Of a DNA stretch of 64,000 nucleotides, positions 1-27,901 are shown piece by piece. The stretch is from Clostridia bacterium. Its GTDB lineage: Bacteria > Bacillota > Clostridia > Christensenellales > CAG-1252. The translations under genes were made by a program, and so were the position numbers. Location of the stretch: positions 69,578 to 133,577 of the forward strand of contig JAFPXC010000020.1 of assembly GCA_017394805.1 (NCBI GenBank). Reading direction: 5' to 3'. The notes beneath the pieces were generated by a model. That model saw nothing but the letters and a program-made list of their open reading frames with translations. It was not told the DNA's origin and made no database searches. How positions within the stretch are numbered: the stretch's first letter is position 1; the number at the start of each line of letters is the position of its first letter.

Positions 1-587
1 ATGCTTTTGTTGATGACGGCGATGAAGTACACCCATTCGGCGATTTCGCGTTCGGACGCCCACTTGCCGAGCAAACTCTCGGCCAAGGCCGCCTCGAAGA
101 GGGCGGGATCGTCTATGACGGGGGCGTTGCTTTGCGTCAGTACGCCGCCCGGCGAGAGGCTGTTGGCGGTGGCGCCGTATTTTGCCAACCGAAGCGCCGC
201 GTTTTTGGTGTAGGTGACCACGCCTCCTTTGGAGGCGGAGTATTGCGGAAACTCGGATCCGTTGGTGGCGGAGGCCGAGGCTATGGTGACGAGCGCTTTG
301 ATATGGGGCTGTACGGCGTAGGTCTCGATGGCGTTGATGGTGCCCTTGAGGTTGACGTCGATCGCGTCCTCGTCGGGGAGTTGCACGCCGGCGGCCGTGA
401 CGAGAATCTCCACGCCGTCTACGGCGGGTAGGGGATCGCGTACGTCGGCGAGAATATGCGAATAATCGGCGTCGCGAATGGCGGCGGGCAGTATATCCAA
501 CCCGACGACTTCGTGCCCTTTTTCGAGGAATAGAATTGCGGTCGCTTTGCCGATGCCGCTACTTGCACCCGTGATTAAGACTTTCAT
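1..587 (-). CDS. SDR-family short-chain dehydrogenase/reductase (3' end runs off the window start)
   Basis: Reverse-strand ATG at 587 gives MKVLITGASSGIGKAT (TGxxxGxG Rossmann motif). YSASK (YxxxK catalytic motif) lies further on. I translated the frame by hand and it stays open to position 1. ATGA overlap with the stop of the upstream gene (584-587). Absent from the ORF track because it is edge-truncated. Confidence 0.8.
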   Translation of the reverse strand, partial: MKVLITGASSGIGKATAILFLEKGHEVVGLDILPAAIRDADYSHILADVRDPLPAVDGVEILVTAAGVQLPDEDAIDVNLKGTINAIETYAVQPHIKALVTIASASATNGSEFPQYSASKGGVVTYTKNAALRLAKYGATANSLSPGGVLTQSNAPVIDDPALFEAALAESLLGKWASEREIAEWVYFIAVINKS

Positions 588-1324
588 TTGTAGTTCTCCT
601 TGCACCAATCGATATATGCCTGCCCGACGCTTTCGTCTTCCATCTTCTTGACGATGCGGTAGCCGATGGGAGAGAAAACGACCTCAAACAGCAATTCGGC
701 CACGGCGCCCGTGACGGCGCACGTCAGACATTGCACGATGCTCCAGCCGAAGAAATGCAGGCTGACGATGAGCGCGAAGAGCAGATTGTCGACGAATTGC
801 GCGATGAACGTAGATACGTAACTGCTCACCGAAAACGCCACGAAATTGTGGTTTTTGAAGGCGCGATTGATGACGAAATGCAGAATATTGTTGAGGATCG
901 CCGAGGAAATGAACGCAACCGAACTGCCCAATATGACGAACCAAGAGGAAGCGATGGTGGCGTCTATTGAAGCGTTGATGACGCCTTCCGACCCTTCGAC
1001 GTAACTTTGCGACCAAGTGCCGGGGATATAGGAGATGGCAAACAGAAGCAACGCGACGGTCAAATTGATGATCAACGCCCCGACGGACAGCATATTGCCC
1101 GCGCGTACGCCGAAGCGGCGCGTGACGATGTCCATCACCAAGAAGCAGATCCAAGAGAAGAGAATGCCGCAGTCCAAGGCAAGCCAGTCGACGCCCAAAT
1201 CGATGCTCTTGTTGGCGAGCAAATTCATGCAGACGACGGATACGGCAAGCAGGGCAAACAAATAGGCGGGTACGTTGCGTAGTAAAAGGGAAAAATCCGT
1301 AAATAAGCGCTTGATTTTAGTCAA
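584..1324 (-). CDS. yhhQ: Queuosine-precursor transporter, YhhQ/VUT (DUF165) family membrane protein
   Basis: 246-aa polytopic membrane protein resembling the YhhQ family. TTG start at 1324 preceded by AAGGAGG with 8-nt spacing. Directly preceded by a preQ1-I riboswitch-like element, the usual regulatory partner of this family. Confidence 0.75.
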   Translation of the reverse strand: MTKIKRLFTDFSLLLRNVPAYLFALLAVSVVCMNLLANKSIDLGVDWLALDCGILFSWICFLVMDIVTRRFGVRAGNMLSVGALIINLTVALLLFAISYIPGTWSQSYVEGSEGVINASIDATIASSWFVILGSSVAFISSAILNNILHFVINRAFKNHNFVAFSVSSYVSTFIAQFVDNLLFALIVSLHFFGWSIVQCLTCAVTGAVAELLFEVVFSPIGYRIVKKMEDESVGQAYIDWCKENYK

Positions 1325-1332
1325 AATATTGA

Positions 1333-1375
1333 CCTCCTTGTTTTTTATTAAAGATGGTTAGGCAAGGAACATCTT
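1333..1375 (-). promoter_or_regulatory. preQ1-I riboswitch (translational, sequesters the SD)
   Basis: The minus strand reads AAGAUGUUCCUUGCCUAACCAUCUUUAAUAAAAAACAAGGAGG. P1 is AGAUG/CAUCU. The loop starts with UUC. There is an A-rich tail, and loop CCUUG can pair with tail CAAGG, which is the SD. The architecture is nearly superimposable on the B. subtilis queC and T. tengcongensis preQ1-I aptamers as I remember them. Confidence 0.72.
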
Positions 1376-1381
1376 TATTGT

Positions 1382-1410
1382 ATTGTAACACGGCGAGGAC
1401 GTAAAGGCAA
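1382..1410 (-). promoter_or_regulatory. Putative sigma-A promoter of the riboswitch-yhhQ transcript
   Basis: Minus strand TTGCCT - 17 nt - TACAAT. The predicted TSS falls about 7 nt downstream, at the 5' edge of the aptamer. Confidence 0.5.
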
Positions 1411-1445: not shown

Positions 1446-1727
1446 GTATACGTTATGTACTGTACATTTTGTATCGTGATAACGAGTAAAACAGTAGAAG
1501 ATATACGTAACGTATAGTATTGACAAAATATATACGTTTTGTATAGGAGTTCCTATGTATATACGTTTTGTGAAGAAAACCGCGTTTGTTGTATATACGT
1601 TTTGTATAGAAACGATGCTTATAGTATGGTTTTAGACTTTTGGAAAATGGAAAAGAGTATAAATTGTATAGTTTGCTATGAAATTATACAAAACGTATAG
1701 TCGTAGACTGCTGTACGTTTTGCATGT
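1446..1727. repeat. Cluster of about 9 copies of the palindromic motif (C)TRTAC-N5-GTAYA(G), locus 1
   Basis: Sites at 1447-1461, 1460-1476, 1501-1517, 1530-1546, 1560-1574 (degenerate), 1593-1609, 1684-1700 and 1711-1727, plus a right half-site at 1666-1671. The 18-mer TATATACGTTTTGTATAG is identical at 1529-1546 and 1592-1609, with a 15/18 copy at 1558-1575. The cluster lies between the divergent yhhQ and oxidoreductase promoters. Confidence 0.85.
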
Positions 1728-1778: not shown

Positions 1779-1806
1779 TTGACTTTTTTGCAAAATATAC
1801 TATAAT
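1779..1806 (+). promoter_or_regulatory. Putative sigma-A promoter of the oxidoreductase/carbonic anhydrase pair
   Basis: TTGACT - 16 nt - TATAAT. The ATG at 1825 lies 18 nt after the -10, so the leader is very short and has only a weak AGG. Confidence 0.5.
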
Positions 1807-1824: not shown

Positions 1825-3138
1825 ATGAGCAAGATTATCGTAGTTGGATTGGGGCACGGCGGGTTGATTGCCGCCGCGAAATTGGCCGAATCGGGCCACG
1901 AAGTCGTTATCTTCGAGAAGCGTTTGCCGCACGAGATTGGGCACGAATGGGAAGATAGATTCGACTTCGACCTCTTGGCGCGGATAATCGGCAAGGATAT
2001 CGCGGACTTCCCCGAGGGGAGTTGGCGGTATAGGGGAGATTGCACCTTCGTCAGCCCCGACAAGCGTACCGTGATAGACGTGCATTTTGCGAAAGACAAG
2101 CGGCAAAAAATCATGTGGCGCAAGCCGCTGATCGGGATGCTCGTCGACTACGCCCGCAGCAAAGGCGTGGAGATACGCTACCAAACGGAAGTCTCCGCGC
2201 CCGTTGTCAAGGACGGCAAGGTGGTCGGCGTCATCGTCGAGGGCGAAAAGGCGTATGCCGACCTCGTCGTTGACGCGTCGGGCGTATTCTCCGTCCTGCG
2301 CAAACAACTCCCCGACGATTGGGGAATAGAGAAAGAGCCGACGCGCGGCGACGTGTTCTACGCCAACCGCGCCTATTACGCTCGAGTCGACGGATACCCC
2401 ACCCCCGTCGTTCCTTTCGAGATCTACTTGATACACGAGGGCGAGCAGGGGCTGTCGTGGCTATGCACCAACGAGGACTCGGTGGACGTGTTGATCGGTC
2501 GCGTTTATCCCATAGACGAGGCCAAAGTAGAGGAACAACTGCGCATTTTCCGCGCGTCGCACCCGTGGCTCGGCGAGAAAGTACGGTGCGGCGGCAACTT
2601 TGCCGTCATTCCCGTGCGCAGGCCCTTGACGCGCATGGTGGGCGAGGGGTATGCCGCCGTGGGTGATTCGGCTTTTATGACCACGCCGATGAACGGTATG
2701 GGCATCGACTTGTCCCTACGAGCGGGGGAGATATTGGCCGAGAGCATAGGCGAAAAGGGCGTGACGATAGACGCCTTGTGGGCGTATAACCGCAAGTACC
2801 TCGCCACGGTGGGTGCCGCGGCCGCCAAGAACGAGGGGCTCAAAAACGCCTTGCTCAATCTACCGCCCGAGGGCGTGGATTTCTTGTACGAAAGCGGCGT
2901 CGTCGAGGCGGAAGACCTATCGGGCGGCGGCAAAAATATGACCTTTCGGCGGCTTATGCGCAAGTTGATACACGGTATGAAACGCCCCAAATACTTCTTC
3001 GCCATCGTCAAAGGGCTGATGAAAGGCGGCAAAATGACCAAATTGTATGCAAATCCGCCGCAAAACTTCGACTGCGAGGCCATCGCCGAATGGTCGCGTA
3101 AGATCGAGCAAAACGTCGTGAAAGTGGAGGAAAGATGA
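1825..3138 (+). CDS. FAD-dependent oxidoreductase (geranylgeranyl-reductase / phytoene-desaturase-like fold)
   Basis: 437 aa. The N-terminal sequence IIVVGLGHGGLIAAAKLAESGHEVVIFEKR is a GxGxxG-x17-E dinucleotide-binding motif. A GDSA-type FAD motif (AAVGDSAF) lies near residue 290. Confidence 0.75.
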   Translation: MSKIIVVGLGHGGLIAAAKLAESGHEVVIFEKRLPHEIGHEWEDRFDFDLLARIIGKDIADFPEGSWRYRGDCTFVSPDKRTVIDVHFAKDKRQKIMWRKPLIGMLVDYARSKGVEIRYQTEVSAPVVKDGKVVGVIVEGEKAYADLVVDASGVFSVLRKQLPDDWGIEKEPTRGDVFYANRAYYARVDGYPTPVVPFEIYLIHEGEQGLSWLCTNEDSVDVLIGRVYPIDEAKVEEQLRIFRASHPWLGEKVRCGGNFAVIPVRRPLTRMVGEGYAAVGDSAFMTTPMNGMGIDLSLRAGEILAESIGEKGVTIDALWAYNRKYLATVGAAAAKNEGLKNALLNLPPEGVDFLYESGVVEAEDLSGGGKNMTFRRLMRKLIHGMKRPKYFFAIVKGLMKGGKMTKLYANPPQNFDCEAIAEWSRKIEQNVVKVEER

Positions 3139-3668
3139 ATCAAATAGATATTTTGGAGCGGTTGTGGGAAGGCAACCGCGAATACGTCAAGAGCGGTAGG
3201 TACAAAGGGAACGTGGGCGAAAGTTTGCGCTCGTCGCTGGCCGCCAAACAAAGCCCGTTGGCCGTGGTCGTGACTTGCTCGGACTCTCGCGTGGTGCCCG
3301 AGGTGATTTTCGGCGCGGATTTGGGCGAGTTGTTCGTCGTTCGCGTGGCGGGCAACGTGCTGGGCGACGTTGAGTTGGCTAGTATCGAATACGCCACGGC
3401 GCATTTGGGCGTCAAAGTCGTCGTCGTGCTTGGGCATACCGCGTGCGGGGCAATCGCCGCCGCCATAGCGGGGGAGGAAGAAGGCCTCGTGGGGACGATA
3501 ACCGCGCCCATTCGCAAAATCATCGCAGGCGAGCAAAACGCCTACAAAGCCGCCGTTAAAAACGTCGTCTATCAGGTAGGCGTTGTCGAAGAGACCTTTG
3601 GCGAAGCGAACGTGGAAGCGGTCGGCGCCATATACGACGTGTCCAAGGGCACGATTGAGTTTTTGTAA
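3135..3668 (+). CDS. Beta-class carbonic anhydrase
   Basis: 177 aa with the zinc ligand motifs CSDSRV and HTACGA. ATGA start/stop overlap with the upstream oxidoreductase gene. Confidence 0.85.
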   Translation: MNQIDILERLWEGNREYVKSGRYKGNVGESLRSSLAAKQSPLAVVVTCSDSRVVPEVIFGADLGELFVVRVAGNVLGDVELASIEYATAHLGVKVVVVLGHTACGAIAAAIAGEEEGLVGTITAPIRKIIAGEQNAYKAAVKNVVYQVGVVEETFGEANVEAVGAIYDVSKGTIEFL

Positions 3669-3699: not shown

Positions 3700-5286
3700 A
3701 TGAAAAAAATAGGCATAGTTACGCTAATTGCCATCACGCTGTGCCTCGTGCTGGCGTTCACGGCTTGTACGCCTACGCCTGCGTCCAAAGTGTTCGATGC
3801 AAAGAAGTTCGACACTTCGGTGAATACGAAAGTGTTGACGCAGGCCGTCAAAGTGACCGAATTGGACGGGTATTCGTTGAATAATCGCGCCAACGGATTG
3901 ATGTTGTTCAGCAAAATCAACGGCACCAAAAACGAGTATATTGTGTACGACGCCGTAGCCGAACGCGTCGTAAAGGCCTATTCGGAGGATACCAACGTTA
4001 AATACGCAATTACGCTGCAGTCGGTCAATTTCGTCGACGGTGTGTTCTATGTATTGCGCACGCGTACCGGTGCGACGGAAGCCGAATATTCGTATAAATA
4101 CGAGTTGATCGAGGCAAACGGCGAGACCGTCGCCGAGCAAACGACAGACTATGTGATTGACAACGTAATAAACGTTCGTGCGGACGTCATCCTGTTTGAT
4201 AATACGCTGTATCGCATCGGCGGCGATAATAAAATCGACAAAATCAAAGAGTTGAACGATTTGACCGGCGTTATTCCCAATTTCGACAGCAAGCGGAACG
4301 GCTGTTACTACGACTTCGATGGCGATAAATTTACCGTTTACGACGAGGATTTCGACGTGATCTACTATTATGAGGCACCCAACTACGCCACGAATCCCAA
4401 CTTCAACGTGTTGGATAACGGCAATGTGCTGACTACCTATTCGATACCGAAAATGGATACGGACAACAAGTACGTTTATATCCAAGTGCAAAACAACGCC
4501 GCCAAGAAATACGACCTGCGTCAGTTGGTCATCAACCCCAAAAAGGGCAAAATATCTCAGTTGGAGAATAAATATTATATCGCGTTTGCCTCGTCGCGCT
4601 ACGAGGACGACGGCGAAGACGTTTTCAATGGGCTCAACAAAAAATACGTCAACGTGGCCTGCATCTATCCCATCGAAGACGGGTATCTCAAAAACAACAA
4701 TTCGGACTCTATAATCGTGAGCATAGGCAACGACGGCTTGCCGGGGGATATCCTCAACGCGACCATCGAGGGCGAGCAAGGCTTTGAGTGCATCTCCAAG
4801 GATAGAGTCATCATCAACGACTGGTTCGGCAATAGTTATTTGTGCAACTACAAGGGAAAGGTCATCGGCAAAGTGACGAACAAAATCGGCTATAACGAAA
4901 CCTTCGTCATCGGTGCCGAAAACGTGTACGATATGGACCTCAAAGTGGTGTGCGCCTATGCGAAAGCGGGGTACGACTACGAGTTCTGCTTGGGCAACAG
5001 CGTTGTGCTGAGTAAGGAAGTAGACGGCAAGGTGCAGTATAAACGCTTGACTGCCGATAGCGTTTTGCACGATCTTTGCGACGATAGCGCGAACTTTACC
5101 AGACAAAGCGCGTATTATTCGGTGCGTAAGAACATCGGCAAATACGAACTGTATAACTGCGACAGCGATTTGATCTGGACGGCGGAAAGCCCGATTTCCG
5201 TGTATGCGGATACGTGGGGCGCAAGACAATACGGTCTTGTCAAGGTAAACGAGAGTGGCAGCAACGTATATTATATCTTGCATTAA
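3700..5286 (+). CDS. Lipoprotein of unknown function
   Basis: 528 aa. AAAGGAGG SD 8 nt upstream. Signal peptide MKKIGIVTLIAITLCLVLAFTAC with the lipobox LAFTAC. N/K/Y/D-rich mature part with no catalytic motif that I recognise. Confidence 0.75.
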   Translation: MKKIGIVTLIAITLCLVLAFTACTPTPASKVFDAKKFDTSVNTKVLTQAVKVTELDGYSLNNRANGLMLFSKINGTKNEYIVYDAVAERVVKAYSEDTNVKYAITLQSVNFVDGVFYVLRTRTGATEAEYSYKYELIEANGETVAEQTTDYVIDNVINVRADVILFDNTLYRIGGDNKIDKIKELNDLTGVIPNFDSKRNGCYYDFDGDKFTVYDEDFDVIYYYEAPNYATNPNFNVLDNGNVLTTYSIPKMDTDNKYVYIQVQNNAAKKYDLRQLVINPKKGKISQLENKYYIAFASSRYEDDGEDVFNGLNKKYVNVACIYPIEDGYLKNNNSDSIIVSIGNDGLPGDILNATIEGEQGFECISKDRVIINDWFGNSYLCNYKGKVIGKVTNKIGYNETFVIGAENVYDMDLKVVCAYAKAGYDYEFCLGNSVVLSKEVDGKVQYKRLTADSVLHDLCDDSANFTRQSAYYSVRKNIGKYELYNCDSDLIWTAESPISVYADTWGARQYGLVKVNESGSNVYYILH

Positions 5287-10190: not shown

Positions 10191-12095
10191 CTAATATCCT
10201 TTGGTGCAGTCTACGACGTTCTGCGGGGCGCGCCCCTGGATATAGTCGATGACGTTTTGGGTGACGTCCTGCACGTAGCGGTCGTGACCGTCCATGACGA
10301 ACATGGCGCGATGGGGAGAAAGGACTACGTTGTCGAACTCTTGCAAATTGTATTTGCTGGGCATGAGTAGGTCGGATTTGTTTTTGGGTTTTTCCTTCCA
10401 TACGTCGTTGGCGATGCCGGCGATAACGTTGTTTTTGAGCGCGTCGTAGAGATCTTTTTCGTTGAGTACGTTGCTACGGCCCACGTTGACGATGAATTTA
10501 TCGCGCAACCACTCGAAACTCTCCTTGTTGAAAATATCGTCCGTGTCGGGCGTTTTCGGCAGGGAAGAGATGATGAGATCGCAAGTTTGGCACAGCTCTT
10601 TGAAATCCTTGACGAGACGAACGTTGTGGTAGGGTTTGCCTCTGTCTATGGTGTATGTCTCAATATCGTTGGCCATGAGTATTTTGTGTATCTGCTTGCC
10701 GATGTCGCCATAGCCCAATAGACCTATCTTCATATCGAAAATGCTTTTCCAATACCGATAGTTTTCGTCGTTCCATTCGCCTTTTCGGAGTTTTTTGTCG
10801 AAAATGCAGATTTGATTGACCAGCGTGATAGCCAACCCGAACGCATACTCGGCAATGTAGTCCGAATTGACGTGCGAATTGCACAATAATACGTCCTTTT
10901 GGGCCAGCTCTTTGAGGGGGAAATCGTCTACGCCCGTCTTGTAGGCGAAGATCGCTTTGAGACGATTGGCCGTAGCGAGCGTGGCCGCGGAGAGTTTCTT
11001 GCCGATGAAGACGTCAACGTCGGATAGGTCTACGTCGTTCAATCCGCATACGCGGACGGTGGCGAAATTGGACAGCACGCTACGCATTCTTTCGAAGGAA
11101 GCGTCCATTTCACCCACGCTCAGCAATATGGTGGGATCTTTCAATATCCGATTGAAATCGTAGTAGGAAGCCACCGTTTCGTAGGGTGCGTTGAGAATGT
11201 CGCCCGCCACTTGGTGTTTGAGTATATAAGACGATATGCCCAATTCGAGCGCTTCCGAGAGGTCGTCGTGCGTGAATAGTCCGTATATAACGCCTGCGTC
11301 GAAAGCGTCGCCCCCGCCGATGCGTTCTTTGACGCGCAATTTGATGCCGTCCAACGCGATGGTTTCCTTGTGAGAGGCCGCCACCACGCGCATCAAGCCG
11401 ACTTCGCCTTTTTTGTCGTCGAGTCTATCCCGCAAAAACAGGTATTTGGCGTCGGGATAGAGCGAAAAAAAGCCGTTGACGAAATCGTCTTGCAGATCTA
11501 AAAAGACCTGCATATCCTTGGTGGACGCCGAGATCACGTCGACGTAGCGAAGCAGTTTGCGAAACGTCGCGCCCGCTTGGTCGGTAGTCCACAAAGCGGG
11601 GCGGTAATTGAAATCGAAACTTGTGGGAATGCCCCGTTCCCGTGCGCTTCGGAGAAGGCGAAACGCCACTCGCTCGGCGGAAGGGGACACGGCGAACGAA
11701 ATGCCCGACACGTGGAACCATCCTACGTCGTCGAAAATATGCTCGAAATCAACGTCGCTCTCGTCGATATGCGCGAATGCGGAATTGCGCCTGTTGTAAA
11801 CGGTCGCTTTGGCGCGGTCTTTCTCTTGGGCGAAGAGATAGTATTCGCCCATATTGCCGTCTTTGACAATGACCGAAGACGTGTCGACGCGGTATTCGTT
11901 GAGTTTGGCGAGGGCGAACGCGCCGATCTTGTCTTTGGGCAGTACGCTGAGATACTTCGCGTCGAGCCCCATTCCCGAAAGACAGCATAATACGTTCGCT
12001 TCCGTGCCGCCGCAGCAATAGTCGAAAGACGAATTGGTATCTATATCGTCTGCGGATAATCTGAGTAATATTTCACCGAATGCAAGTACTTTCAT
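10191..12095 (-). CDS. Fusion protein: PfkB-family sugar(-acid) kinase (KdgK-like) + D-isomer-specific 2-hydroxyacid dehydrogenase
   Basis: A single 634-aa ORF. The N-terminal ~310 aa are KdgK-like (FGEILLRL, GGTEANV, and the GGGDAFDAG anion hole). The C-terminal ~300 aa carry the NAD site GLLGYGDIGKQI and an R/D/H catalytic set (VGRSNV, ANDVW, SPHRA). Confidence 0.8.
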   Translation of the reverse strand: MKVLAFGEILLRLSADDIDTNSSFDYCCGGTEANVLCCLSGMGLDAKYLSVLPKDKIGAFALAKLNEYRVDTSSVIVKDGNMGEYYLFAQEKDRAKATVYNRRNSAFAHIDESDVDFEHIFDDVGWFHVSGISFAVSPSAERVAFRLLRSARERGIPTSFDFNYRPALWTTDQAGATFRKLLRYVDVISASTKDMQVFLDLQDDFVNGFFSLYPDAKYLFLRDRLDDKKGEVGLMRVVAASHKETIALDGIKLRVKERIGGGDAFDAGVIYGLFTHDDLSEALELGISSYILKHQVAGDILNAPYETVASYYDFNRILKDPTILLSVGEMDASFERMRSVLSNFATVRVCGLNDVDLSDVDVFIGKKLSAATLATANRLKAIFAYKTGVDDFPLKELAQKDVLLCNSHVNSDYIAEYAFGLAITLVNQICIFDKKLRKGEWNDENYRYWKSIFDMKIGLLGYGDIGKQIHKILMANDIETYTIDRGKPYHNVRLVKDFKELCQTCDLIISSLPKTPDTDDIFNKESFEWLRDKFIVNVGRSNVLNEKDLYDALKNNVIAGIANDVWKEKPKNKSDLLMPSKYNLQEFDNVVLSPHRAMFVMDGHDRYVQDVTQNVIDYIQGRAPQNVVDCTKGY

Positions 12096-12107: not shown

Positions 12108-13676
12108 TCAAATCTTCGGCTGACCGTTGGAGTCGAAAATACGCTCGTGCGCGAGTTCCATATACGCTATGCAGGCAAGTAGAGCGTCGCCGCTTTCACG
12201 ATAGTAGCGGATAGGGCAGTATTTATGGGACTTTTGCAGGCAATTCTGTGCGCCGAAGCGGACGCGCGGGGATAGTTTGCGATAGACGCGTAGCGTTTCG
12301 TCGCGCTTGCGTAAGGTAAATCCGTATTTGAAATCCACGGCGAGCTTGTCGTGTCTGACCAGGAAATATTTGCTGTCGAGTTTTTCTTTTTTGAGAGGAT
12401 TGCCGCTTACGTCGGCGGAGAAATCCTCGATTTGCCGTTTGAGCGCTTCCGCCCCGATGTTGAGTACGACGTAGAAATACAGATTGGGTTTGCCTCCTTC
12501 CACCAGGTCGCGCGCCAGCCCCAGGAAGTTGGTGCGTAGATCGAAGGCATACTGATCTTTGGTGATGCCGAAGTTTTCTTTGAGCGTTTTGGCGATCACC
12601 GTGGCGAACAATTCGTTCTCGACGCCCTCGATGATCACTTTCGCCTGTCGGTCGTAGTAACTATCGAACTTGTCCGGTTTGAAGGCAAGCGATATTGGTT
12701 GGGCGAACTTGTTTTTCCAAGTCGTCTTTTTGCGACTGCGTTTTTCGATCAAAAGATATCCGTCCGACGTGATGACCAACCCGTTGATGCCGATTTGGTT
12801 GCACAGAAGACTGTCTTTGAGATCGTTCAGGCGGGGATTATACTCGTACAGATCGCGCACGGTCACGCCTTGCTCGATGCAGTAGTCCATACATCTGTTG
12901 GTCAGCAGCATCTGATAATAGGTGGATTTTTGCGTTTCGAGCGTCAACTCGTCGGTCTCATCGGTTTGGCGGAAGGATACATCCCTAAGGCGAATGGACG
13001 TCGCGTTGCGCACGATAGAGTGTTTGTGCGCGCTGATGAGATTGGTGGCGCAGTTGATGAGAAAGTCGGGCAGTTGGTATTGCTCTGGCGAATCGTGTAT
13101 CGTGATGGTTGCGTTGCCTTCAACGTTGGCATACACGTTGACGTTCGGCAAGGTAAGCACGTGCTTTTGCGTGAATTGCCCGACGTCCATACAATAGTTT
13201 ATGCGCTCGTCCGAATATTTGTCGTAAATGTAGGGATAGAGGTATCGACGGGGGCGACGGTCGGCAATATGCGCGGTGATCTGCAGATCGTGGCCAACGC
13301 TATCGTAGCGGTTTTGGATGATTTCGGCCGTGCAGTCGTCTTCGCTGAAATGGCTCTTGTATCGGTGAATGATGGCGCGTTTTTCGTCGTTCAATTTGGT
13401 GTATTCTTCGCTTCTGTTGCGGAAAACGTCAACGAAAAAGACCACCGTCGCGCTGGCAAGCGCCGTCAGACAAACGGATATGAAACTCATATCCGTGATC
13501 AACTTGCGCAGGGCCTCTTGGGGGGATAAGCCATGTAATTCGTGGAAGGGCAACTTCGGCAGGACGAGTATGGAGATCAAAATGACAGCCACGCACAGAA
13601 TGACGAAGATGATCGCTCTGAAAAGGCCCCGTTCCCAACTTTTGTGTATTTCTTTGAAAGTTGCGTGTTTTCGCAT
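12108..13676 (-). CDS. Hypothetical 2-TM membrane-anchored protein with a large soluble domain (possible degenerate Nudix-like fold)
   Basis: 522 aa. SD AAAGGAG. Two N-terminal hydrophobic helices (residues ~18-40 and ~65-87). The stretch GINGLVITSDGYLLIEKRS ... GVENELFATVIAKTLKENFGI resembles a Nudix strand plus box but lacks the catalytic REx2EE. I do not recognise a family. Confidence 0.65.
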   Translation of the reverse strand: MRKHATFKEIHKSWERGLFRAIIFVILCVAVILISILVLPKLPFHELHGLSPQEALRKLITDMSFISVCLTALASATVVFFVDVFRNRSEEYTKLNDEKRAIIHRYKSHFSEDDCTAEIIQNRYDSVGHDLQITAHIADRRPRRYLYPYIYDKYSDERINYCMDVGQFTQKHVLTLPNVNVYANVEGNATITIHDSPEQYQLPDFLINCATNLISAHKHSIVRNATSIRLRDVSFRQTDETDELTLETQKSTYYQMLLTNRCMDYCIEQGVTVRDLYEYNPRLNDLKDSLLCNQIGINGLVITSDGYLLIEKRSRKKTTWKNKFAQPISLAFKPDKFDSYYDRQAKVIIEGVENELFATVIAKTLKENFGITKDQYAFDLRTNFLGLARDLVEGGKPNLYFYVVLNIGAEALKRQIEDFSADVSGNPLKKEKLDSKYFLVRHDKLAVDFKYGFTLRKRDETLRVYRKLSPRVRFGAQNCLQKSHKYCPIRYYRESGDALLACIAYMELAHERIFDSNGQPKI

Positions 13677-13704
13677 GTGTAACTCCTTTGTGACAGACGA
13701 TCGA

Positions 13705-14133
13705 TCATTCGTTCGAGCCGTCGGGATGGTCGGGCGTGTTGTCGATCGACTCAGCCGTTTCTTCGCCGCCCGAAGGCGTCAATTCCGCAGGTACGAGCGC
13801 GTCGTCTACGGGCAGAGGCCTGTTGTTGTTGAGACCTACTGTGTTGTCTACGGGCAGGGCAAAGGCGATGCCGTGGCAGTTGGTATTGATGCCCACCTTG
13901 CTGTACAAAGCGTGCAGTATGGTGTCGCGTATGGGCGTGGGCACCAATATCATCACCATCTCTTTGTTGGGCTGTATGGCGATGTTGAAGTAGCGCTCGG
14001 CCTCTTTGTTGGCCGTGCCTCTCGCGTGGACGACCGTACCGCCGCGTGCGCCGCATTCCTTGGCCGCGTCCATGACGTTGTCGATATATCCTTCGTCTAC
14101 GATACAAATGATCAGTTGATGCCTATATTCCAT
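13705..14133 (-). CDS. P-II-family signal-transduction-like protein with an acidic C-terminal tail
   Basis: 142 aa. A beta-alpha-beta pattern (LIICIVDEGYIDNVMDAAKECGARGGTVVHARG ... HGIAFALPVDNTVGL) aligns by eye to GlnB/PII. SD TAGGAG. Confidence 0.7.
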   Translation of the reverse strand: MEYRHQLIICIVDEGYIDNVMDAAKECGARGGTVVHARGTANKEAERYFNIAIQPNKEMVMILVPTPIRDTILHALYSKVGINTNCHGIAFALPVDNTVGLNNNRPLPVDDALVPAELTPSGGEETAESIDNTPDHPDGSNE

Positions 14134-19187: not shown

Positions 19188-19222
19188 TTTACTTTTTGCG
19201 GTTGGTGTCGTATAATAAAAGC
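19188..19222 (+). promoter_or_regulatory. Putative promoter giving leaderless dnaX mRNA
   Basis: TTTACT - 17 nt - TATAAT (19211-19216) - 6 nt - ATG (19223). No SD. Confidence 0.5.
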
Positions 19223-21816: not shown

Positions 21817-21840
21817 ATATCGATTGAGAATATAAAAGAA

Positions 21841-21866
21841 ACGGGCGCCTATCGGCGTCCGTTTTC
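21841..21866. terminator. Intrinsic terminator between convergent recR and the acidic-protein gene
   Basis: Stem ACGGGCGCC (21841-21849) / GGCGTCCGT (21854-21862) with a 4-nt loop, followed by TTTT. Confidence 0.7.
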
Positions 21867-21868
21867 GC

Positions 21869-24853
21869 TTAGATGACATAGAACTTTCTCGTTCGATAGA
21901 GTAGGGCGTACACGATTACCCATACTGGCAGCAACAGTAGCATGGCCGCGGGGTAGAACACGGGGGCGATAAGGGTGTTGATCTCGCTGATATTGGCGCC
22001 CGATTTCGGATTGAAGAAGGCGATCAGTAAGAAGATCATCATCAATATCAACGCCACCATGAACGAGGTTGCGAACGATAGTTTGAAGGAGAAGGTCGCC
22101 GGCGCGTGTCGGTCTTTGTACGCCAGATAGCGTACGCCGCAGTAGCAGGGGATAAGGAACAGCACGATGCCCGTGCATAGGTAGGGCATAAAGCCGAGCC
22201 CCGCGTATTTGTCACACACGAAGTAGCCGATGAGAATGAGCGCGACCGCCACCAGATAGACTAAGCACGAGGTGGCAAAGCGAATGCTGTTGACGTTGAT
22301 ATATTTCTGCGAATAGTACTGCACGGTATGCTGGACGACGTATTGGCGCACATCGTAGCCTTTTTTGCGCATCTCTTCGCGGAATTCGGACAGACTGCCG
22401 CATTCCTTCATCGTGATTTTGCTGTCCACGTCTTCTTGCTGTTTGGGCGCGTTGGACGAATTGAACAAGTTGTGCAAAATCGTCTTGTACGACAGGTGTT
22501 TTTCCGTTTCTTCCTGTTGCAGGTAGATTTCCAATTCGGTTTGGGGCGTGAAGATGGCGGAGTAGGACTCTCTCTTTGGCGAGATTTCTTCCTCTTTGAC
22601 CTCGGGCACTTCCTCTTCTGGCTCTTGCGGCTCCTCGGTTTTATCGTCCTCGATCAAGCCCAAAAGGCGCATAGAAGCAAGCCTTTTCTCGTGCATTTCG
22701 GGGTTTTCTTCCAATTCTTGCCGAATGTCGGCACGACTGAACGCCGTCCTGCGTTTGATTGGTTCAGGCTCGGCTTGGGCGGCCTCTTGCGATTGCTCGT
22801 ACAAGGCAAAGGTGTCGGCTTCTTCCTCTTCGGCAATGACGCGTTCCTCGTTTTTGCGGCCTTTACGCCCTTTCTGCCGCGCCTTTTTGTCTTCTTTGAC
22901 GGGCGCAACGGGCTCGTTCGATTCTTCCTCGGGCAAGGAACTATTCGCCTCTACGACGGCTTCGTCATAGGTGGATTCGGGCTGTGCTTCCGCTTGTTCC
23001 GAGGGGAGAGTAGCCTCGACGTCGGACGGAGTTTCGTCGGTTTGCGCTTCTTCTTGCGTTTCGCTATCGGCGTCGTCGGCACGAGATTCTTGTTCGGCGG
23101 GTTCTTCCGTTCGTTCGCTTGCGACCACAGGCTCTTTATAGGTTCGTTCTGCTTCGGGCACTACGGGATATTCCTCGTCGGTCGTCTCTTGTGCGGGTTC
23201 TTCCGTTGTGTCTTGGGATGGCTCGCCGAAGAGGACGTATTCGTCCATCACGGTCGAAGTCGGTTCGTAGGCGGATTCGGTCTCGACCGCGGTGGGCGTT
23301 TCGTCGTCCTCGACAACTGCTTCGAGCTCGTCGGTTTCGTTATATTCTTCGGTTATGTCTTCTTCTGCCGCTTCGTCTCGTTCGTCGACGGGTTGCTCGG
23401 CGCTTTCGGTTTCGATCGATTCGTCTTCAACGTCGGCGTTTTCGTCAACTATTTCCGCGCATATCTCGTCTTCGTCCGTATCGTCGGTATTTTCGACGAC
23501 AAAGGGCGGTTCATCGCCGTCTTCTTCGTGTTCTTCGCTATTCTCTGCGGCGATAACTTGTTCGTCTTCCGATTCTTCTTCGACTGCTTCCGTTTGGTCG
23601 CTTTCGACAGCATACGCGGCCTCGTCCGCCGTATCGTCGAATTGCTCGTCGAGCACTTCCTCGGCAACTTCGGCAGGTTCTTCCTCGTCGTTATCGTCCG
23701 ATTCTCGTTCGTCTTCGCAGACGGTTTCAGCTTGTTTGAACGGCTCGTAAGAGTAGGGCGGCTCGTATTCGCTTGCCGCTTCATCGTCTGCGCTTTCGTC
23801 TTCGTCCGTCACCTGCGCCTCTTCCGCCGTATCGTCTTCGGCGGCGTAAAGCGCTTCGTGCGCAGGCTCGTATTCTTCGTCCGATATTGCTTCCTCGTCC
23901 GTTTCTTCTTGCACGACCTCTTCTTGCTCGTCGTCGGAGGGTAGGGCGGGTTGTTCTTCGTCTTGGGCGGCTTCTTTTATTTCAGTCTCGTCTTCGTTTA
24001 TATCGTCGGCAGCTTCTTCGAAGGGCTCTTCCTTGATTTCTTCCTCGTCCGACTCGGCGAAAACTTCCTCGACTTGTTCGGCTTCTGCGGGGAGTTCGTC
24101 GGAAATTTCTTCGCATTCGACGTTGGAATCTTCCTCAGACTCGGACGAATCGTCTTCGTCAACGTCCTCGGCAGCGTCTTTCGCCGCTATTGAATCTTCT
24201 TCCGTTTCGGCGGGCTCTTCGACTTCTACGGGGCATTCTTCTTCGATTTGCGCGGAATCATCCTCGTTTTCTTGGTCATCAGCTGCGTTTTCGGTCGAAT
24301 ATTGCGCATCGGTATCCGTTTCCTGTTCGGTTAGAGATTCGTCAATGGCGATATCCGTTTCACTTTCGACTTCACTTTCGTCGGTATCGGCGGCGTCCGC
24401 TTCCGCTGCAAGTTCGGTGAACTCCTCGGCATCTTCGATTTCGAAAATCTCGAGGTTGTCTTCAAAAATGTGCAGGGTAGGCTTGCCGTCACCGAAATCA
24501 TCGGTGAGATATATCTTCTCGTTCGAAGCGCTCACCGGAGAGAGCGCCAGCGCGTCGCACAATTTGTCGATCATTTGGTCGTCCAGATTGAACATAGGCA
24601 GGTCATCGACCGAAATGCGCAGGGCAAAAAACGAGCGGTTGGGATCGGATTCTTGACAAATGCAGGCAATCAGGCAATCCAACTGCAATTCGTTGACTCT
24701 ATTGGCGACGCTCAAAGGGGAAATATGATAACGGTCCAAAAAACCGTCCAAAGACGACGTAATCTCGTAAACTGTCAACGAGGAATGCGCCAATGCGTTG
24801 AGTATGTAGGAATCCATTTGTTCCAGCAATTCATCGTATATATTATTTCCCAT
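21869..24853 (-). CDS. Hyper-acidic membrane-anchored protein: winged-helix-like N-terminal domain, ~540-aa D/E-rich disordered tract, 4-TM C-terminus
   Basis: 994-aa ORF. The N-terminal ~130 aa are globular (ILNALAHSSLTVYEITSSL... resembles a wHTH). Residues ~140-680 are roughly 40-50 percent D+E by eye, with almost no K/R. A short basic patch follows (KKARQKGRKGRKNEER). The C-terminal ~150 aa contain four long hydrophobic helices. No family recognised. Confidence 0.75.
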   Translation of the reverse strand: MGNNIYDELLEQMDSYILNALAHSSLTVYEITSSLDGFLDRYHISPLSVANRVNELQLDCLIACICQESDPNRSFFALRISVDDLPMFNLDDQMIDKLCDALALSPVSASNEKIYLTDDFGDGKPTLHIFEDNLEIFEIEDAEEFTELAAEADAADTDESEVESETDIAIDESLTEQETDTDAQYSTENAADDQENEDDSAQIEEECPVEVEEPAETEEDSIAAKDAAEDVDEDDSSESEEDSNVECEEISDELPAEAEQVEEVFAESDEEEIKEEPFEEAADDINEDETEIKEAAQDEEQPALPSDDEQEEVVQEETDEEAISDEEYEPAHEALYAAEDDTAEEAQVTDEDESADDEAASEYEPPYSYEPFKQAETVCEDERESDDNDEEEPAEVAEEVLDEQFDDTADEAAYAVESDQTEAVEEESEDEQVIAAENSEEHEEDGDEPPFVVENTDDTDEDEICAEIVDENADVEDESIETESAEQPVDERDEAAEEDITEEYNETDELEAVVEDDETPTAVETESAYEPTSTVMDEYVLFGEPSQDTTEEPAQETTDEEYPVVPEAERTYKEPVVASERTEEPAEQESRADDADSETQEEAQTDETPSDVEATLPSEQAEAQPESTYDEAVVEANSSLPEEESNEPVAPVKEDKKARQKGRKGRKNEERVIAEEEEADTFALYEQSQEAAQAEPEPIKRRTAFSRADIRQELEENPEMHEKRLASMRLLGLIEDDKTEEPQEPEEEVPEVKEEEISPKRESYSAIFTPQTELEIYLQQEETEKHLSYKTILHNLFNSSNAPKQQEDVDSKITMKECGSLSEFREEMRKKGYDVRQYVVQHTVQYYSQKYINVNSIRFATSCLVYLVAVALILIGYFVCDKYAGLGFMPYLCTGIVLFLIPCYCGVRYLAYKDRHAPATFSFKLSFATSFMVALILMMIFLLIAFFNPKSGANISEINTLIAPVFYPAAMLLLLPVWVIVYALLYRTRKFYVI

Positions 24854-24946: not shown

Positions 24947-25354
24947 AATACATTATGTACGGTATGAAACGTATAGTATAATCGGCATACAAAACGTATA
25001 GTTTTATAACCATACAAAATGTATAGCAATACATACAAAATGTACAATAGCGGCAGTAATGGCGTATATGTACATTTTGTATAGTATACTGTACATTATG
25101 TATAGTTGCAAATAAAACATCAGCCATGGAAGACGGGGAGTTGGTGCGCGTGTACGTTTTGTATAGTGCGCTATACGTTATGTATAGATACACAAGTTGC
25201 TCGGTAATGACTATATGTTTTGTATATCTACGACAAATATTCATGTACAAGGATACTGTCGATCGGCTTGCCGTGTTCGCTCCGGATTGTCTGTATGTCT
25301 TCGATGAATGCCTTGTTTTTGTTTGGCGGCTATTTATTCTGTACAAAACGTACG
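24947..25354. repeat. Palindrome array, block A: at least 11 copies of CTRTAC-N5-GTAYAG
   Basis: Left half-site starts at 24947, 24986, 25011, 25032, 25069, 25090, 25151, 25172, 25212 and 25340, plus a right-half-only site at 24971. Examples: CATACAAAACGTATAG (24986-25001) and CTATACGTTATGTATAG (25171-25187). The spacer is always A/T-rich. Confidence 0.9.
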
Positions 25355-25370
25355 ATTTTGGCCAAATTTT

Positions 25371-25416
25371 GCCTATATCTTTTCGCAAAAGGCGTCTTTT
25401 GCGAAAAGATATAGGC
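25371..25416. repeat. Perfect 21-bp inverted repeat (hairpin/cruciform) in the array core
   Basis: GCCTATATCTTTTCGCAAAAG (25371-25391), loop GCGT, then CTTTTGCGAAAAGATATAGGC (25396-25416). There is no flanking U-tract on either strand. Confidence 0.9.
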
Positions 25417-25618
25417 AAAGCGCAAATTTCCCTCGTCAGAGCCCGTATATACAAAAGATAATTGCCGCCCGACACCACCGAACGGAATGGGTTGGCGTGC
25501 GTGCGCTTTCGTTCGGCCAAACTGACGGATCGCCCCTGCCCTATCGACGCAAATTTGCAAAAATCGTCAAAATTCTCCTCGGGGGAAAATACTTGCATTC
25601 GCCAAAAAACGCGCGATA

Positions 25619-26229
25619 TGTACATAATGTATAGTCAAATAAACGCCTGGTGATGGCCTATATATAATGTATACAAAATGTACAGTCAACTGTATAAAAC
25701 GTATAGATAAGAATTATTGGGACCAACATTGCATTCTGTAGATTTTATACAGCAAACTATACTAAACGTATAGATGGCAATTAAGAATGAATAGCGCGAC
25801 CTCACTCCCCCGCCCTGACCGTCCTTCAATAATCGAACTATACAAAATATATATATAACTATACATATTGTATACTATACATTTCATACAGCGTACTATA
25901 CATTATGTATATGTATATTTCGTATAGTAAATATGTCCTTACGGCTGCTTCCCGTTTTGAGCCGTCAATATTGTCCATTGTGTATGTACAAATTGTATAG
26001 ATACAAAACGTATAGGCCTATACAAAGCGTACAGTCATTCGTTTCATCGGCACGCTGTACAAAACGTATATGGTGTGTTTGAGACTATGCTATACGTTAT
26101 GTATATATACAAATTGTATAGTTTGAAACGTCGCTATACATATCGTATACATACATTTTGTATACTTGGCGTTCGTCTTGCTGAGATACGATTCTTCCGC
26201 CCGCATATTGTTACTGTATAAAACGTATA
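25619..26229. repeat. Palindrome array, block B: at least 20 copies of CTRTAC-N5-GTAYAG
   Basis: Left half-site starts at 25619, 25659, 25670, 25691, 25737, 25758, 25839, 25860, 25876, 25897, 25912, 25985, 26000, 26019, 26056, 26091, 26106, 26135, 26150 and 26215. Example: CTATACTAAACGTATAG (25757-25773). Confidence 0.9.
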
Positions 26230-26346: not shown

Positions 26347-26559
26347 ATGAACAATTTTAAGTACAATCTCATAATCACCCGCAAGCGTTGCAAGTATACC
26401 CAAAAGGAGATGGCGGATATGCTTGGCGTGACCGAGGGTTGCTACGCGCACTGGGAACAAGGGCGGAATGAGCCGAGCATCGCTTATATCATTCAGCTTT
26501 GCAAACTGTTACACGTTACGTCGGACGAGCTGCTGGGTGTCAACAATGACGAGAACTAA
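26347..26559 (+). CDS. XRE-family helix-turn-helix transcriptional regulator
   Basis: 70 aa. YTQKEMADMLGVTEGCYAHWEQGRNEPS is a classic Cro/C1-type HTH. Confidence 0.82.
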   Translation: MNNFKYNLIITRKRCKYTQKEMADMLGVTEGCYAHWEQGRNEPSIAYIIQLCKLLHVTSDELLGVNNDEN

Positions 26560-26644: not shown

Positions 26645-27700
26645 ATGGACAATTACTTTCAAAACCGCGATATCGAAAACACGAAGAAGCTGAGCGCGCT
26701 ACGCAAGCAACTGCCGCCCTACTGCGGCAAGTATTTCGTCGCCATTTCTTCGGTCACGACGGCTTTGACGAGATTGGGCTACGCACGCGATTTGCTCATA
26801 TTCTTCAACTACCTCTGCTCTACCGGTCAATTCGGCATGTGCACACCCCCCGAGTTCGATATCGACCGTCTCAACGCCGTAACGCAATCGGACATCGAGG
26901 CCTATCTCGATTATCTGTCCAATTACGAGGTGGACGGCAAAATATACGTCAATAAATTGAGCGCCATGTCGCGCAAACTGTCCGCCGTGCGCTCTCTCTT
27001 CAAATATCTGTATAACAAGGACTTGTTGCACGAAAACGTTTCCGCCAAGGTGCTGACGCCCAAACTGCACGAAAAGGAAATCATTAGGCTGGAGTCGGAC
27101 GAAATGCAGCGCTTTATGGACGTGGTGGAACGCGGCGACAATCTGGGCGAGGGGCATCAATCGGCCTACCACAAAAACGTCGCCCTGCGCGATATGGCCA
27201 TCACTACCCTACTGCTCGGCACGGGCATTCGTATCAGCGAATGCGTCGGCCTCAACGTGGACGACCTGGACTTCGACAACCGCAAATTCGTCGTGACGAG
27301 GAAAGGCGGCAGTCGCTCCATATTGTATATGCCCCAAGAGGTGATCGACGCGTTGCAGGCCTACCTCAGCGTACGTTTGGCCATTCCCACAGATACCGAC
27401 GCCTTGTTTTTGTCCCTGCAAAACAGGCGTATCAACGTGCGTACCGTGCAGATTATGGTGCGAAAATACGCCGCGGCCGCCGTGCCGACGAAGCATATCA
27501 CGCCGCACAAATTGCGCTCTACGTTCGGTACCAATCTATATAGAGAAACCAAAGATATTTATGTCGTGGCCACCGTACTCGGCCATAGCGACGTGAATAC
27601 GACCAAAAAACACTACGCCGCCATCAGCGAAGATATCAAAAAGCAGGCGGCAGAGGTCGTGCGCTTGCGCCCCTCGGACGGCGACGATACGCACGAATAA
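26645..27700 (+). CDS. Tyrosine site-specific recombinase, XerC/XerD-like
   Basis: 351 aa. N-terminal SAM-like core-binding domain. The catalytic residues sit in their usual context (GTGIRISE; HKLRSTFGT; LGHSDVNTTKKHYA). Confidence 0.9.
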   Translation: MDNYFQNRDIENTKKLSALRKQLPPYCGKYFVAISSVTTALTRLGYARDLLIFFNYLCSTGQFGMCTPPEFDIDRLNAVTQSDIEAYLDYLSNYEVDGKIYVNKLSAMSRKLSAVRSLFKYLYNKDLLHENVSAKVLTPKLHEKEIIRLESDEMQRFMDVVERGDNLGEGHQSAYHKNVALRDMAITTLLLGTGIRISECVGLNVDDLDFDNRKFVVTRKGGSRSILYMPQEVIDALQAYLSVRLAIPTDTDALFLSLQNRRINVRTVQIMVRKYAAAAVPTKHITPHKLRSTFGTNLYRETKDIYVVATVLGHSDVNTTKKHYAAISEDIKKQAAEVVRLRPSDGDDTHE

Positions 27701-27706: not shown

Positions 27707-27901
27707 CTATTTTTTCGATTTATTGTTGGGAACAACGACGCTGTCGATCAAAACGCCGTTGTAGTCCGCCATATCCAAGCATTTCATGCAGTTATCACAG
27801 CGCTTCGTGGGATCCAGATCGCACATATCGCAAGCGCCGCAATCGTCGCAAATAACGCCTTTGACCAAAATACATTCCTTGCCGACGTTGGGATTAGTCA
27901 T
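27707..27901 (-). CDS. Small cysteine-rich protein, 2 x [C-x7-C-x2-C-x2-C]
   Basis: 64 aa. GGAGG lies 7 nt upstream of the ATG. 8-nt overlap with the upstream ynbB-like gene. Eight Cys at positions 10, 18, 21, 24, 27, 35, 38 and 41 form an internal duplication. Confidence 0.6.
   Translation of the reverse strand: MTNPNVGKECILVKGVICDDCGACDMCDLDPTKRCDNCMKCLDMADYNGVLIDSVVVPNNKSKK

Follow-up and report, generated by a model that had tools for sequence, protein, structure and literature searches.

Clustered palindromes between two divergent promoters and around a candidate dif-like site in a Clostridia bacterium: probable sites of a dimeric DNA-binding protein

What are the nine short palindromes that crowd into about 280 bp between two outward-facing promoters of a Clostridia bacterium, and which protein, if any, would they serve? 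The DNA in question is a stretch of 64,000 nucleotides, here called the window (contig JAFPXC010000020.1 of assembly GCA_017394805.1, positions 69,578 to 133,577 of the forward strand), in which copies of the motif TRTAC-N5-GTAYA are clustered at 1446-1727, between a yhhQ gene with a probable preQ1-I riboswitch and an operon headed by an oxidoreductase gene, and again, in far greater number, in a main array near 25 kb (Table 1). The evidence set out below indicates that the palindromes are very probably sites for some sequence-specific dimeric protein, rather than hairpins or copy-paste repeats. That the nine palindromes are operators of such a protein, most likely of a 70-residue Cro-like protein of the Xre/HTH_3 type encoded beside the main array, is the explanation that we favour, at marginally better than an even chance, and the main array itself probably surrounds a dif-like dimer-resolution site at the replication terminus.

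The cluster comprises four exact copies of the motif, two copies with one mismatch and three with two, nine in all, against expectations of 0.016, 0.27 and 1.7 for the respective classes in local dinucleotide-preserving shuffles; the interval is AT-rich (30% G+C), and none of 5000 shuffles equalled either its exact count or its count with at most one mismatch. A sequence-only reading of the window had counted approximately nine sites here, and its identical 18-mers (TATATACGTTTTGTATAG, at 1529-1546 and 1592-1609) were found just as it had described them, while the third copy at 1558-1575, which it had scored as a 15/18 match, in fact agrees at 16 of 18 bases. The start-to-start spacings are 14, 41, 29, 29, 34, 62, 29 and 27 bp. 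The repeats in the cluster region measure 12-23 nt, none being longer than the motif itself, and neither terminal inverted repeats nor target duplications were seen there. Both outward promoters proposed by the earlier reading are present as promoter-like sites (promoters in all our comparisons are consensus predictions only). The claim that the cluster fills the space between them stands as far as the sites do occupy this spacer, but the nearest site edges stop 36 bp short of the -35 box of yhhQ and 52 bp short of that of the oxidoreductase operon. The riboswitch also fared in two ways, its aptamer being supported by its place upstream of yhhQ and by the conservation of its sequence in a related locus (L129, see below), whereas its score of 25.7 bits did not reach the gathering score of 39 of the Rfam family RF00522 (E = 0.005, 601 bases searched).

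The properties of the motif itself were derived from loci related to that of the main array, which were gathered through homologues of the Xre gene and of mgl, a neighbouring gene of the Met_gamma_lyase family, and are cited here by number. A logo of 108 exact sites from related genomes gave as full consensus a 17-bp palindrome, C-T-[A/g]-T-A-C-[A/g]-W-W-W-[T/c]-G-T-A-[T/c]-A-G (that is, C-TRTAC-R-WWW-Y-GTAYA-G), the centres of whose half-sites are 10 bp apart. The combinations at the two facing variable positions, R2 and Y14, occur as the product of their marginal frequencies (AT 54, AC 25, GT 21 and GC 8), and this independence means that base pairing is not the conserved constraint. In the alignable arrays of L123 and L124, only 6 of 210 fixed half-site positions differ (2.9%), as opposed to 14.3% in the DNA between sites and 11.5% in the spacers (Fisher p = 3e-7), so that the half-sites diverge five times more slowly than the surrounding DNA, with some ascertainment bias remaining in this comparison from the definition of sites in either sequence. 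Within the arrays, the commonest start-to-start distance is 21 bp, or 20 bp in low-GC lineages, which would put paired sites on the same face of the helix. The motif sequences had no match in Rfam, and the phased site pair had none in viral contigs. It is this combination of independent half-sites, selection on the half-sites and phased spacing that argues for a protein-binding site. An apparent mirror symmetry of spacer orientation about the central palindrome of the window was not reproduced in L123 and was dropped.

The cluster at 1446-1727 has a counterpart in another genome. A search with the oxidoreductase returned 45 metagenomic loci, and the divergent yhhQ is kept in L129 only, where the oxidoreductase is 72% and YhhQ 82% identical to the proteins of the window. 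The L129 spacer contains three exact sites 22 bp apart, the last of which ends 42 bp upstream of the oxidoreductase promoter of that locus (TTGACA-17-TATAAT). When the two spacers are aligned, the riboswitch side is near-perfect and the middle unalignable, without clean insertion boundaries, and the spacer of the window is longer by 165 bp. The earlier reading had suggested looking at orthologous spacers for absent sites and clean boundaries as the mark of a selfish repeat; the retention of three exact sites in L129 and its lack of such boundaries favour conserved sites instead. None of the other 44 oxidoreductase loci, which are 49-59% identical and do not share the synteny, has an exact site, and 239 kb of these loci gave only five matrix matches.

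Over the whole window there are 22 exact matches to the motif against 0.06 expected. A matrix trained only on other genomes gave 42 matches of at least 11 bits, 31 of them in the main array, seven in the cluster at 1446-1727, two upstream of hrcA and two, weak, in coding DNA, which confirms that the cluster and the main array carry the same motif; in the reverse test, a matrix built from this window found 25-45 matches per related array and five in the same 239 kb, used as unrelated control loci. The motif is almost confined to non-coding DNA, and sites are present in about 3 of the roughly 40 intergenic regions of the window. When the window was extended with flanks from its source scaffold to 81 kb (-9416 to 71569), the places occupied came to four, consistent with the proposal of a dispersed element rather than a local duplication. 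The site added by this extension, with one mismatch, lies at -108 in the convergent 3' spacer of argH and an SDR gene, and an exact site at the contig end of L129 (4-20) apparently occupies the equivalent place, an equivalence that assumes the position of the SDR gene, since the site is placed just beyond the stretch where that gene would lie. The earlier statement that the motif sits in divergent promoter regions is true of the two places to which it referred, but not of the pair upstream of hrcA, which is found between the terminator of the upstream gene (52787-52765) and a perfect co-directional promoter, TTGACA-17-TATAAT (52534-52506), nor of the single sites in convergent 3' spacers. In every promoter-side cluster, 36-62 bp separate the -35 box from the closest edge of a site upstream of it.

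The hrcA promoter is also bracketed by two CIRCE-like inverted repeats (52470-52545, minus strand), TTAGCAGTC-N9-GAGTGCCAA and TTAGCAGTC-N9-CATTGCTAA, and this is the layout expected for HrcA operators, distinct from the two palindromes further upstream. Sites in convergent 3' spacers, single or paired, were observed at L087 1044-1085, L080 437-475 and L127 11465-11479, besides position -108 of the extended sequence and L129 4-20, and some of these copies have stems of 8-11 bp flanked by runs of A and T (L087 1044-1070, L127 11465), so that a few of them might double as bidirectional terminator hairpins. Matches within miaB (L123 19089, L124 12694, L127 18714, L174 3751, L175 3826 and L177 1737) were rejected as a coding coincidence, because they arise from the codons of the radical-SAM motif C-T-Y-C-I-V (TGT ACN TAT TGT ATA GT). 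A pattern scan of a genome collection for two sites within 30 bp yielded, among the matches listed, for the most part chance hits and tandem repeats of other phyla with no relation to the motif, the informative ones being L019, L080 and L087.

The main array belongs to a locus of conserved synteny, in which lacZ-dnaX-ybaB-recR are followed by a long gene, 1.3-2.7 kb of non-coding DNA, the Xre gene, a recombinase gene, a gene for a Cys-rich protein and mgl-miaA-mutL-mutS. Across lineages of 36-54% G+C the arrays stay at this one locus and individual sites turn over. The array of the window ends 118 bp upstream of the Xre start codon, an arrangement found again in seven related loci. The window and L123, L124, L127, L128, L174, L175 and L177 (36-54% G+C) have the Xre and Cys-rich genes together with the recombinase gene, the long gene and a central palindrome, and hold 17-45 sites per locus; L176, which has lexA in the locus, and L178 have the recombinase gene, the long gene and the palindrome, but neither the Xre nor the Cys-rich gene, and no intergenic sites. 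Since arrays occur in all loci with the Xre gene and are absent from the two without it, the Xre protein is our candidate for the binder, and we consider it the most economical choice, with somewhat better than even chances of being the right one. Profiles of P22 C2, ImmR and a lambda-like repressor from the PDB match it at E = 1e-6 to 1e-5, and its recognition helix, helix 3 (VTEGCYAHWEQGRNEP), is invariant in all homologues, which come from genomes of 36-54% G+C that all keep the motif. The Xre homologues beside site pairs in L017, L063 and L073 turned out to be unrelated prophage or Rgg-like regulators, which show only that HTH_3 proteins commonly use operators of this kind.

The other genes of this locus deserve description, as two of them could compete with Xre for the sites. 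The Cys-rich protein (64-69 residues, with the pattern C-x7-C-x2-C-x2-C-x2-C ... C-x2-C-x2-C) is also encoded at L174 15307-15513 and L175 11235-11441; it had no significant family match in Pfam, NCBIfam or PHROGs, and a faint resemblance to zf-CXXC (E = 0.07). The long gene codes in the window for a protein of 994 residues with a winged-helix N-terminus of about 100 residues, an acidic low-complexity linker of about 650 and a multi-pass membrane C-terminus. Its N-terminus matches the winged-helix regulators ZitR, AphA and PadR (E = 0.003-0.03), the L176 and L178 homologues are annotated with Pfam PadR, and this N-terminal part is 37-44% identical among close relatives that keep the same motif. 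The long gene, of 453-1123 codons, adjoins the dif-like site in all lineages, and its product may be a membrane-anchored DNA-binding protein at the terminus, to judge from this domain layout. Two gene orders were observed: in L174 (11237-17256) and L177 (9249-14828) the order is mgl, array, Xre, recombinase, Cys-rich and PadR-membrane gene, so that the array is still upstream of Xre and the long gene has moved downstream of the recombinase and Cys-rich genes, whereas in the window (21869-27901) and L175 it is mgl, Cys-rich gene, recombinase, Xre, array and PadR-membrane gene. The segment by the recombination site has therefore been inverted or otherwise rearranged in evolution. L176, an array-less sister lineage, has at least four LexA-box-like sequences (variants of CGAAC-N4-GTTCG) in the 650-bp convergent spacer of mgl and lexA (11290-11600), and more of them upstream of lexA and of the recombinase gene (12540-12560, 13700-13725). 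The idea that Xre replaced LexA in place finds loose support at best, lexA of L176 being downstream of the recombinase gene and Xre upstream, and was set aside. An open reading frame of 226 codons (21199-21879, minus strand) was discarded as an antisense shadow of recR, its supposed homologue in L087 being recR read backwards.

In every array-bearing locus the main array flanks, on both sides, a perfect palindrome that is our candidate for a dif-like site. This palindrome is present in all nine related loci, with arrays or without, and occurs once in the window; across loci its core reads T(T/A)TTCGCAAAA, six variable bases and TTTTGCGAA(A/T)A, with a 6-bp centre that differs between species. 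Among 13 families, the recombinase encoded nearby scored best, and over its full length, against XerS, with 196.4 bits, below the NCBIfam cut-off of 267. In the 81 kb, all 15 plus-strand copies of the word GGGTAG are left of 24475 and all nine minus-strand copies right of 27204 (24:0), and GGGNAGGG is divided in the same manner, 5:0 on the left and 0:6 on the right (11:0), its first right-hand copy lying at 25534. The switch in word polarity is thus bracketed by 24475 and 25534; the same polarity was found in eight related loci, and it is not a coding-strand effect, because most left-hand copies lie antisense within minus-strand genes. GC skew drops from approximately +0.09 to approximately 0 at 22-26 kb, but taken alone it is ambiguous, as it shows a step without a flip of sign, and at third codon positions a preference for C-ending codons dominates the skew; it is the oriented G-rich words, and not GC skew alone, that settle the question of the terminus. 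Over -9416 to 71569 the skew is asymmetric about the switch: it stays near +0.09 to the left, is close to 0 over 30 kb to the right, and becomes -0.06 to -0.09 only past 58 kb. The canonical E. coli and B. subtilis dif sites and the difSL sequence are absent even with nine mismatches allowed. The distance to the dif-like site is 23.7 kb for the cluster at 1446-1727 and, on the other side, 27.2 kb for the hrcA pair; every cluster seen lies within 27 kb of the palindrome, and the 81 kb examined is free of clusters in its outermost 9 kb on the left and 19 kb on the right.

How might a Cro-like protein act at such sites? According to the explanation that we favour, one dimer would bind each 17-bp site, reaching into two consecutive major grooves on the same helix face. 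Dimers would coat the stretch of approximately 370 bp, devoid of promoters, that separates the yhhQ promoter from that of the oxidoreductase operon, and the resulting multi-dimer complex would modulate or insulate both divergent promoters from upstream and not occlude them, given that the sites begin 36-62 bp before the -35 boxes and never lie over core promoters. The cluster at 1446-1727 would be a satellite of the main array of the same protein, located by the dif-like site and the protein's own gene, where the Xre protein would both regulate the xre-recombinase unit to which its gene belongs and cover the DNA surrounding the dif-like site. We infer from sequence data both the binding by the Xre protein and the effect of that binding on transcription. 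Some of our own observations weigh against this explanation. No site overlaps a predicted -35 or -10 box, which is atypical for a repressor of the Cro/CI type; convergent 3' spacers, which contain no promoter that could be regulated, hold some of the sites; the three gene sets adjoining clusters have no obvious common function; and the cluster at 1446-1727 lacks the pairs of sites 21 bp apart that characterise the main array. Moreover, the co-occurrence of arrays and Xre gene probably reflects one evolutionary gain and counts as one event, not seven, the gene for the Cys-rich protein of 64 residues has the same pattern of presence and absence as the Xre gene, and that for the PadR-like membrane protein also adjoins the array and, in L087 and L080, has sites on both of its sides.

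These last points lead to the possibility, unlikely in our estimate but deserving to be kept in mind, that the sites are bound by another protein, be it the Cys-rich protein, the PadR-like domain of the 994-residue protein or a regulator encoded outside the window. The Cys-rich gene tracks the arrays exactly and its product is faintly similar to CXXC zinc fingers, yet no family matches this protein significantly. Divergent from the array, the PadR-like gene encodes an N-terminus with the winged-helix matches mentioned above and is flanked by sites in two loci, yet it also occurs in the site-free loci L176 and L178, it is no longer beside the array in L174 and L177, and its putative DNA-binding domain diverges fast while the motif is unchanged. 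Furthermore, a palindrome of 17 bp whose half-sites are 10 bp apart is what a helix-turn-helix dimer classically recognises. The sequence-only reading had left open a choice between a regulon operator and a nucleoid-organising site, and in purifying selection, lack of covariation between R2 and Y14 and conservation of the arrays the motif does behave as a family of protein-binding sites, in agreement with that suggestion. Another reading, by which the clusters would be sites of terminus architecture (matS-like, or a fork barrier) and not transcriptional operators, appears to us rather improbable. The protein would then coat the dif-like site and a few satellite clusters within about 27 kb, so as to hold or position sister termini or slow forks, and the place between promoters would only show where additional DNA can be tolerated. 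The position of the main array on both sides of the dif-like palindrome, the change in word polarity and GC skew at the array, the avoidance of core promoters by all sites, their occurrence in some convergent 3' spacers and the proximity of every cluster to the palindrome all speak for it; however, the sites were mapped over 81 kb of a single genome, palindromic sites cannot give a polar fork trap, a plain helix-turn-helix protein of 70 residues has no evident domain for bridging or partner binding, and the L129 cluster keeps a fixed place relative to the promoter, as a regulatory site would. A fuller version of the same thought, which we hold to be doubtful, is that these features together make up an undescribed terminus system in a clade of uncultured gut Clostridia, with an XerS-like single recombinase, a palindromic dif-like site, 30-45 sites for a Cro-like protein of 70 residues in which that site is embedded, a possible Cys-rich partner and satellite clusters tens of kb away. 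Under it, the coated array would hold or position sister termini, as MatP/matS does, or be a natural non-polar replication roadblock, like artificial lacO/tetO arrays, or serve as accessory DNA that controls Xer recombination, and the cluster at 1446-1727 would be an architectural site of the terminus domain and not an operator.

Two further explanations have very little probability. A selfish intergenic repeat family, of the REP/BIME or MITE kind and spread by copying, would account for palindromic sequences that are intergenic and clustered, for identical 18-mers 63 bp apart and for a spacer longer than its counterpart in L129. This alternative, raised by the sequence-only reading, fails on the details: only the 10-12 bases of the half-sites are common to the copies, spacers and flanks vary, the repeats do not exceed 23 nt and lack the terminal inverted repeats and target duplications of such elements, the half-sites evolve five times more slowly than adjoining DNA, the array is fixed at one locus in lineages of widely differing base composition (36-54% G+C), few intergenic regions are occupied and viral contigs gave no match. 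It is just as improbable that the palindromes serve as hairpins in nucleic acids (for instance as RNA stem-loops, terminators or cruciforms) or as sites of the neighbouring tyrosine recombinase. Each site could fold into a stem of 5-7 bp with a loop of 3-5 nt, and some 3'-spacer copies have the longer stems mentioned above, but mixed G/T and A/C combinations at R2 and Y14 are common, specific bases are kept without compensatory changes, and the stems are AT-rich and mostly without a T-tract, in addition to the negative Rfam search. As for recombination, the recombinase gene beside the main array and the inversion of the locus between lineages would fit, but L176 and L178 have the recombinase without arrays, and the conserved 11-6-11 palindrome is a better candidate for its site.

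A Xre/Cro-type protein with palindromic operators is a known kind of system. As with the Cro/CI-type Xre repressors (P22 C2, phage 434, ImmR of ICEBs1), we have a small HTH_3 protein, palindromes of 15-17 bp with half-sites one helical turn apart, several operators adjacent to the gene of the regulator, and pairs of sites that face the same side of the helix; a prophage switch in L017 with the same DNA pattern has TATAC-N5-GTATA sites between divergent cI-like and cro-like genes. The present case departs from this kind by its kilobase arrays of 30-45 sites, its stable syntenic inheritance, its avoidance of promoters and the embedded dif-like site. Phage switches have 3-6 sites, whereas here 30-45 sites extend over 1.3-2.7 kb; unlike phage repressors, gene and array are chromosomal and vertically inherited in conserved synteny without a prophage; no site lies over a -35 or -10 box; and the array surrounds a dif-like site. 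REP/BIME and MITE repeats share with our sites that they are short, palindromic, intergenic and clustered, but our sites have no shared element beyond the half-sites, show purifying selection on these and occupy few loci.

In the enterobacterial Ter macrodomain, MatP/matS comprises short palindromic sites for a small dimeric protein, and these cluster around dif in the terminus region; in the 81 kb seen here, the polarity switch and the dif-like palindrome lie within the main array. MatP is a ribbon-helix-helix/coiled-coil protein whose matS sites occur singly, at intervals of tens of kb, over about 800 kb, whereas the candidate binder here is of the HTH_3 type, and its sites would form one dense array at the dif-like site and a few small clusters elsewhere. 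With a different fold, the system is not a member of MatP/matS, though it may function similarly. The 20 window proteins that were scanned included none of the MatP type, and no MatP-like terminus-organising protein is known to us in Firmicutes. The closest parallel for the recombinase and its site is with the single-recombinase Xer systems, which have been described for streptococci and lactococci, epsilon-proteobacteria and archaea, and of which XerS and XerH are gene-plus-site modules (PMC5357621). As in XerS/difSL, the dif-like site is within about 1.3 kb of the recombinase gene and at a switch of skew and of KOPS-like words, and its arms (TTTTCGCAAAA and TTTTGCGAAAA) resemble those of difSL (TTTCCGAAAA and TTTTCTTGAAA). 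However, difSL is asymmetric, with 31 bp and an 11-bp centre (PMC5357621), whereas the present site is a perfect 11-6-11 palindrome, the recombinase scores below the cut-off, the host belongs to the Clostridia, and some lineages add flanking arrays, an Xre gene and a Cys-rich gene. The plasmid sites cer and psi have, beside the Xer core, accessory sequences to which ArgR/PepA or ArcA/PepA bind (PMC5357621), and here too putative sites for DNA-binding proteins other than the recombinase adjoin the candidate core site, but cer and psi have one or two such sites in 180-200 bp on one side, whereas the arrays cover 0.4-1.3 kb on both sides and have satellite clusters, such as that at 1446-1727, without a core site. 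In the searchable literature we found nothing relevant on the operator sequence, on arrays of this type or on single-recombinase Xer systems in Clostridia.

Table 1. Positions of the palindromes, promoters, genes and candidate recombination site discussed in the text (window coordinates unless a locus number is given)
Feature	Position	Strand	Remarks
Abutting site pair, TATACGTTATGTACT + TGTACATTTTGTATC	1447..1475 (starts 1447, 1461)		One mismatch each; 16.8 + 17.8 bits with the other-genome matrix
Exact site, TATACGTAACGTATA	1502..1516		Motif match and matrix
Exact site, TATACGTTTTGTATA	1531..1545		Within 18-mer 1529-1546
Degenerate site, TATACGTTTTGTGAA	1560..1574		Two mismatches; left half intact, right half decayed
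Exact site, TATACGTTTTGTATA	1594..1608		Within 18-mer 1592-1609
Degenerate site, AGTATAAATTGTATA	1656..1670		Two mismatches; right half intact; 15.5 bits
Exact site, TATACAAAACGTATA	1685..1699		Spacer in opposite orientation
Degenerate site, TGTACGTTTTGCATG	1712..1726		Two mismatches
Main array	24947..26229 (~24.95-26.23 kb)		About 30 sites over 1.3 kb, many paired 21 bp apart, on both sides of the dif-like palindrome
Exact site pair upstream of hrcA	52586-52600 and 52616-52630		At least 51 bp upstream of the hrcA -35 box; matrix matches at 52585 and 52615
Candidate dif-like site, conserved perfect palindrome	25370..25417 (core 25380-25407)		11-6-11: TTTTCGCAAAA-GGCGTC-TTTTGCGAAAA
Same palindrome in relatives	L123 9135; L127 8534; L128 9113; L174 12510; L175 14063; L176 14267; L177 10007; L178 11032		
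Candidate binder, Xre/Cro-type HTH_3 protein	26347..26559	+	70 aa; PF01381, E = 4e-12, above cut-off
Tyrosine recombinase	26645..27700	+	351 aa; best NCBIfam match XerS
Cys-rich protein	27707..27901	-	64 aa, eight cysteines; co-occurs with Xre gene and arrays
994-aa protein, divergent from array	21869..24853	-	PadR/MarR-like winged-helix N-terminus, acidic linker, membrane C-terminus
Vut_1/YhhQ-family transporter gene	584..1324	-	Family match
Probable preQ1-I riboswitch aptamer	1332..1379	-	Sub-threshold RF00522 match
Promoter-like site, yhhQ transcription unit	1382..1410	-	TTGCCT-17-TACAAT, TG before second hexamer
Promoter-like site, oxidoreductase operon	1779..1806	+	TTGACT-16-TATAAT, 11/12 consensus
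FAD-dependent oxidoreductase, geranylgeranyl-reductase type	1825..3138	+	First gene of operon
Beta-carbonic anhydrase	3135-3668	+	Oxidoreductase operon
Unassigned 528-aa protein	3700-5286	+	Oxidoreductase operon
dnaX	19196-20884		
ybaB	20894-21232		
recR	21229-21816	+	

If the best of these explanations is true, the bacterium would possess a chromosomal, vertically inherited Cro-like regulator whose operators have expanded to kilobase arrays and to the upstream regions of a few operons, an unusual architecture, the units involved being yhhQ and the oxidoreductase operon, hrcA-grpE-dnaK and the protein's own xre-recombinase unit. It could then represent a natural high-copy operator array that buffers or titrates a transcription factor. 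As site, protein and natural array-minus lineages are all defined, the system is open to testing. The terminus context carries more weight, because the arrays lie around the apparent dimer-resolution site of an XerS-like single-recombinase system in Clostridia, and a sequence-specific protein that has dozens of its sites at dif would offer a direct handle on terminus organisation or replication termination in these bacteria.

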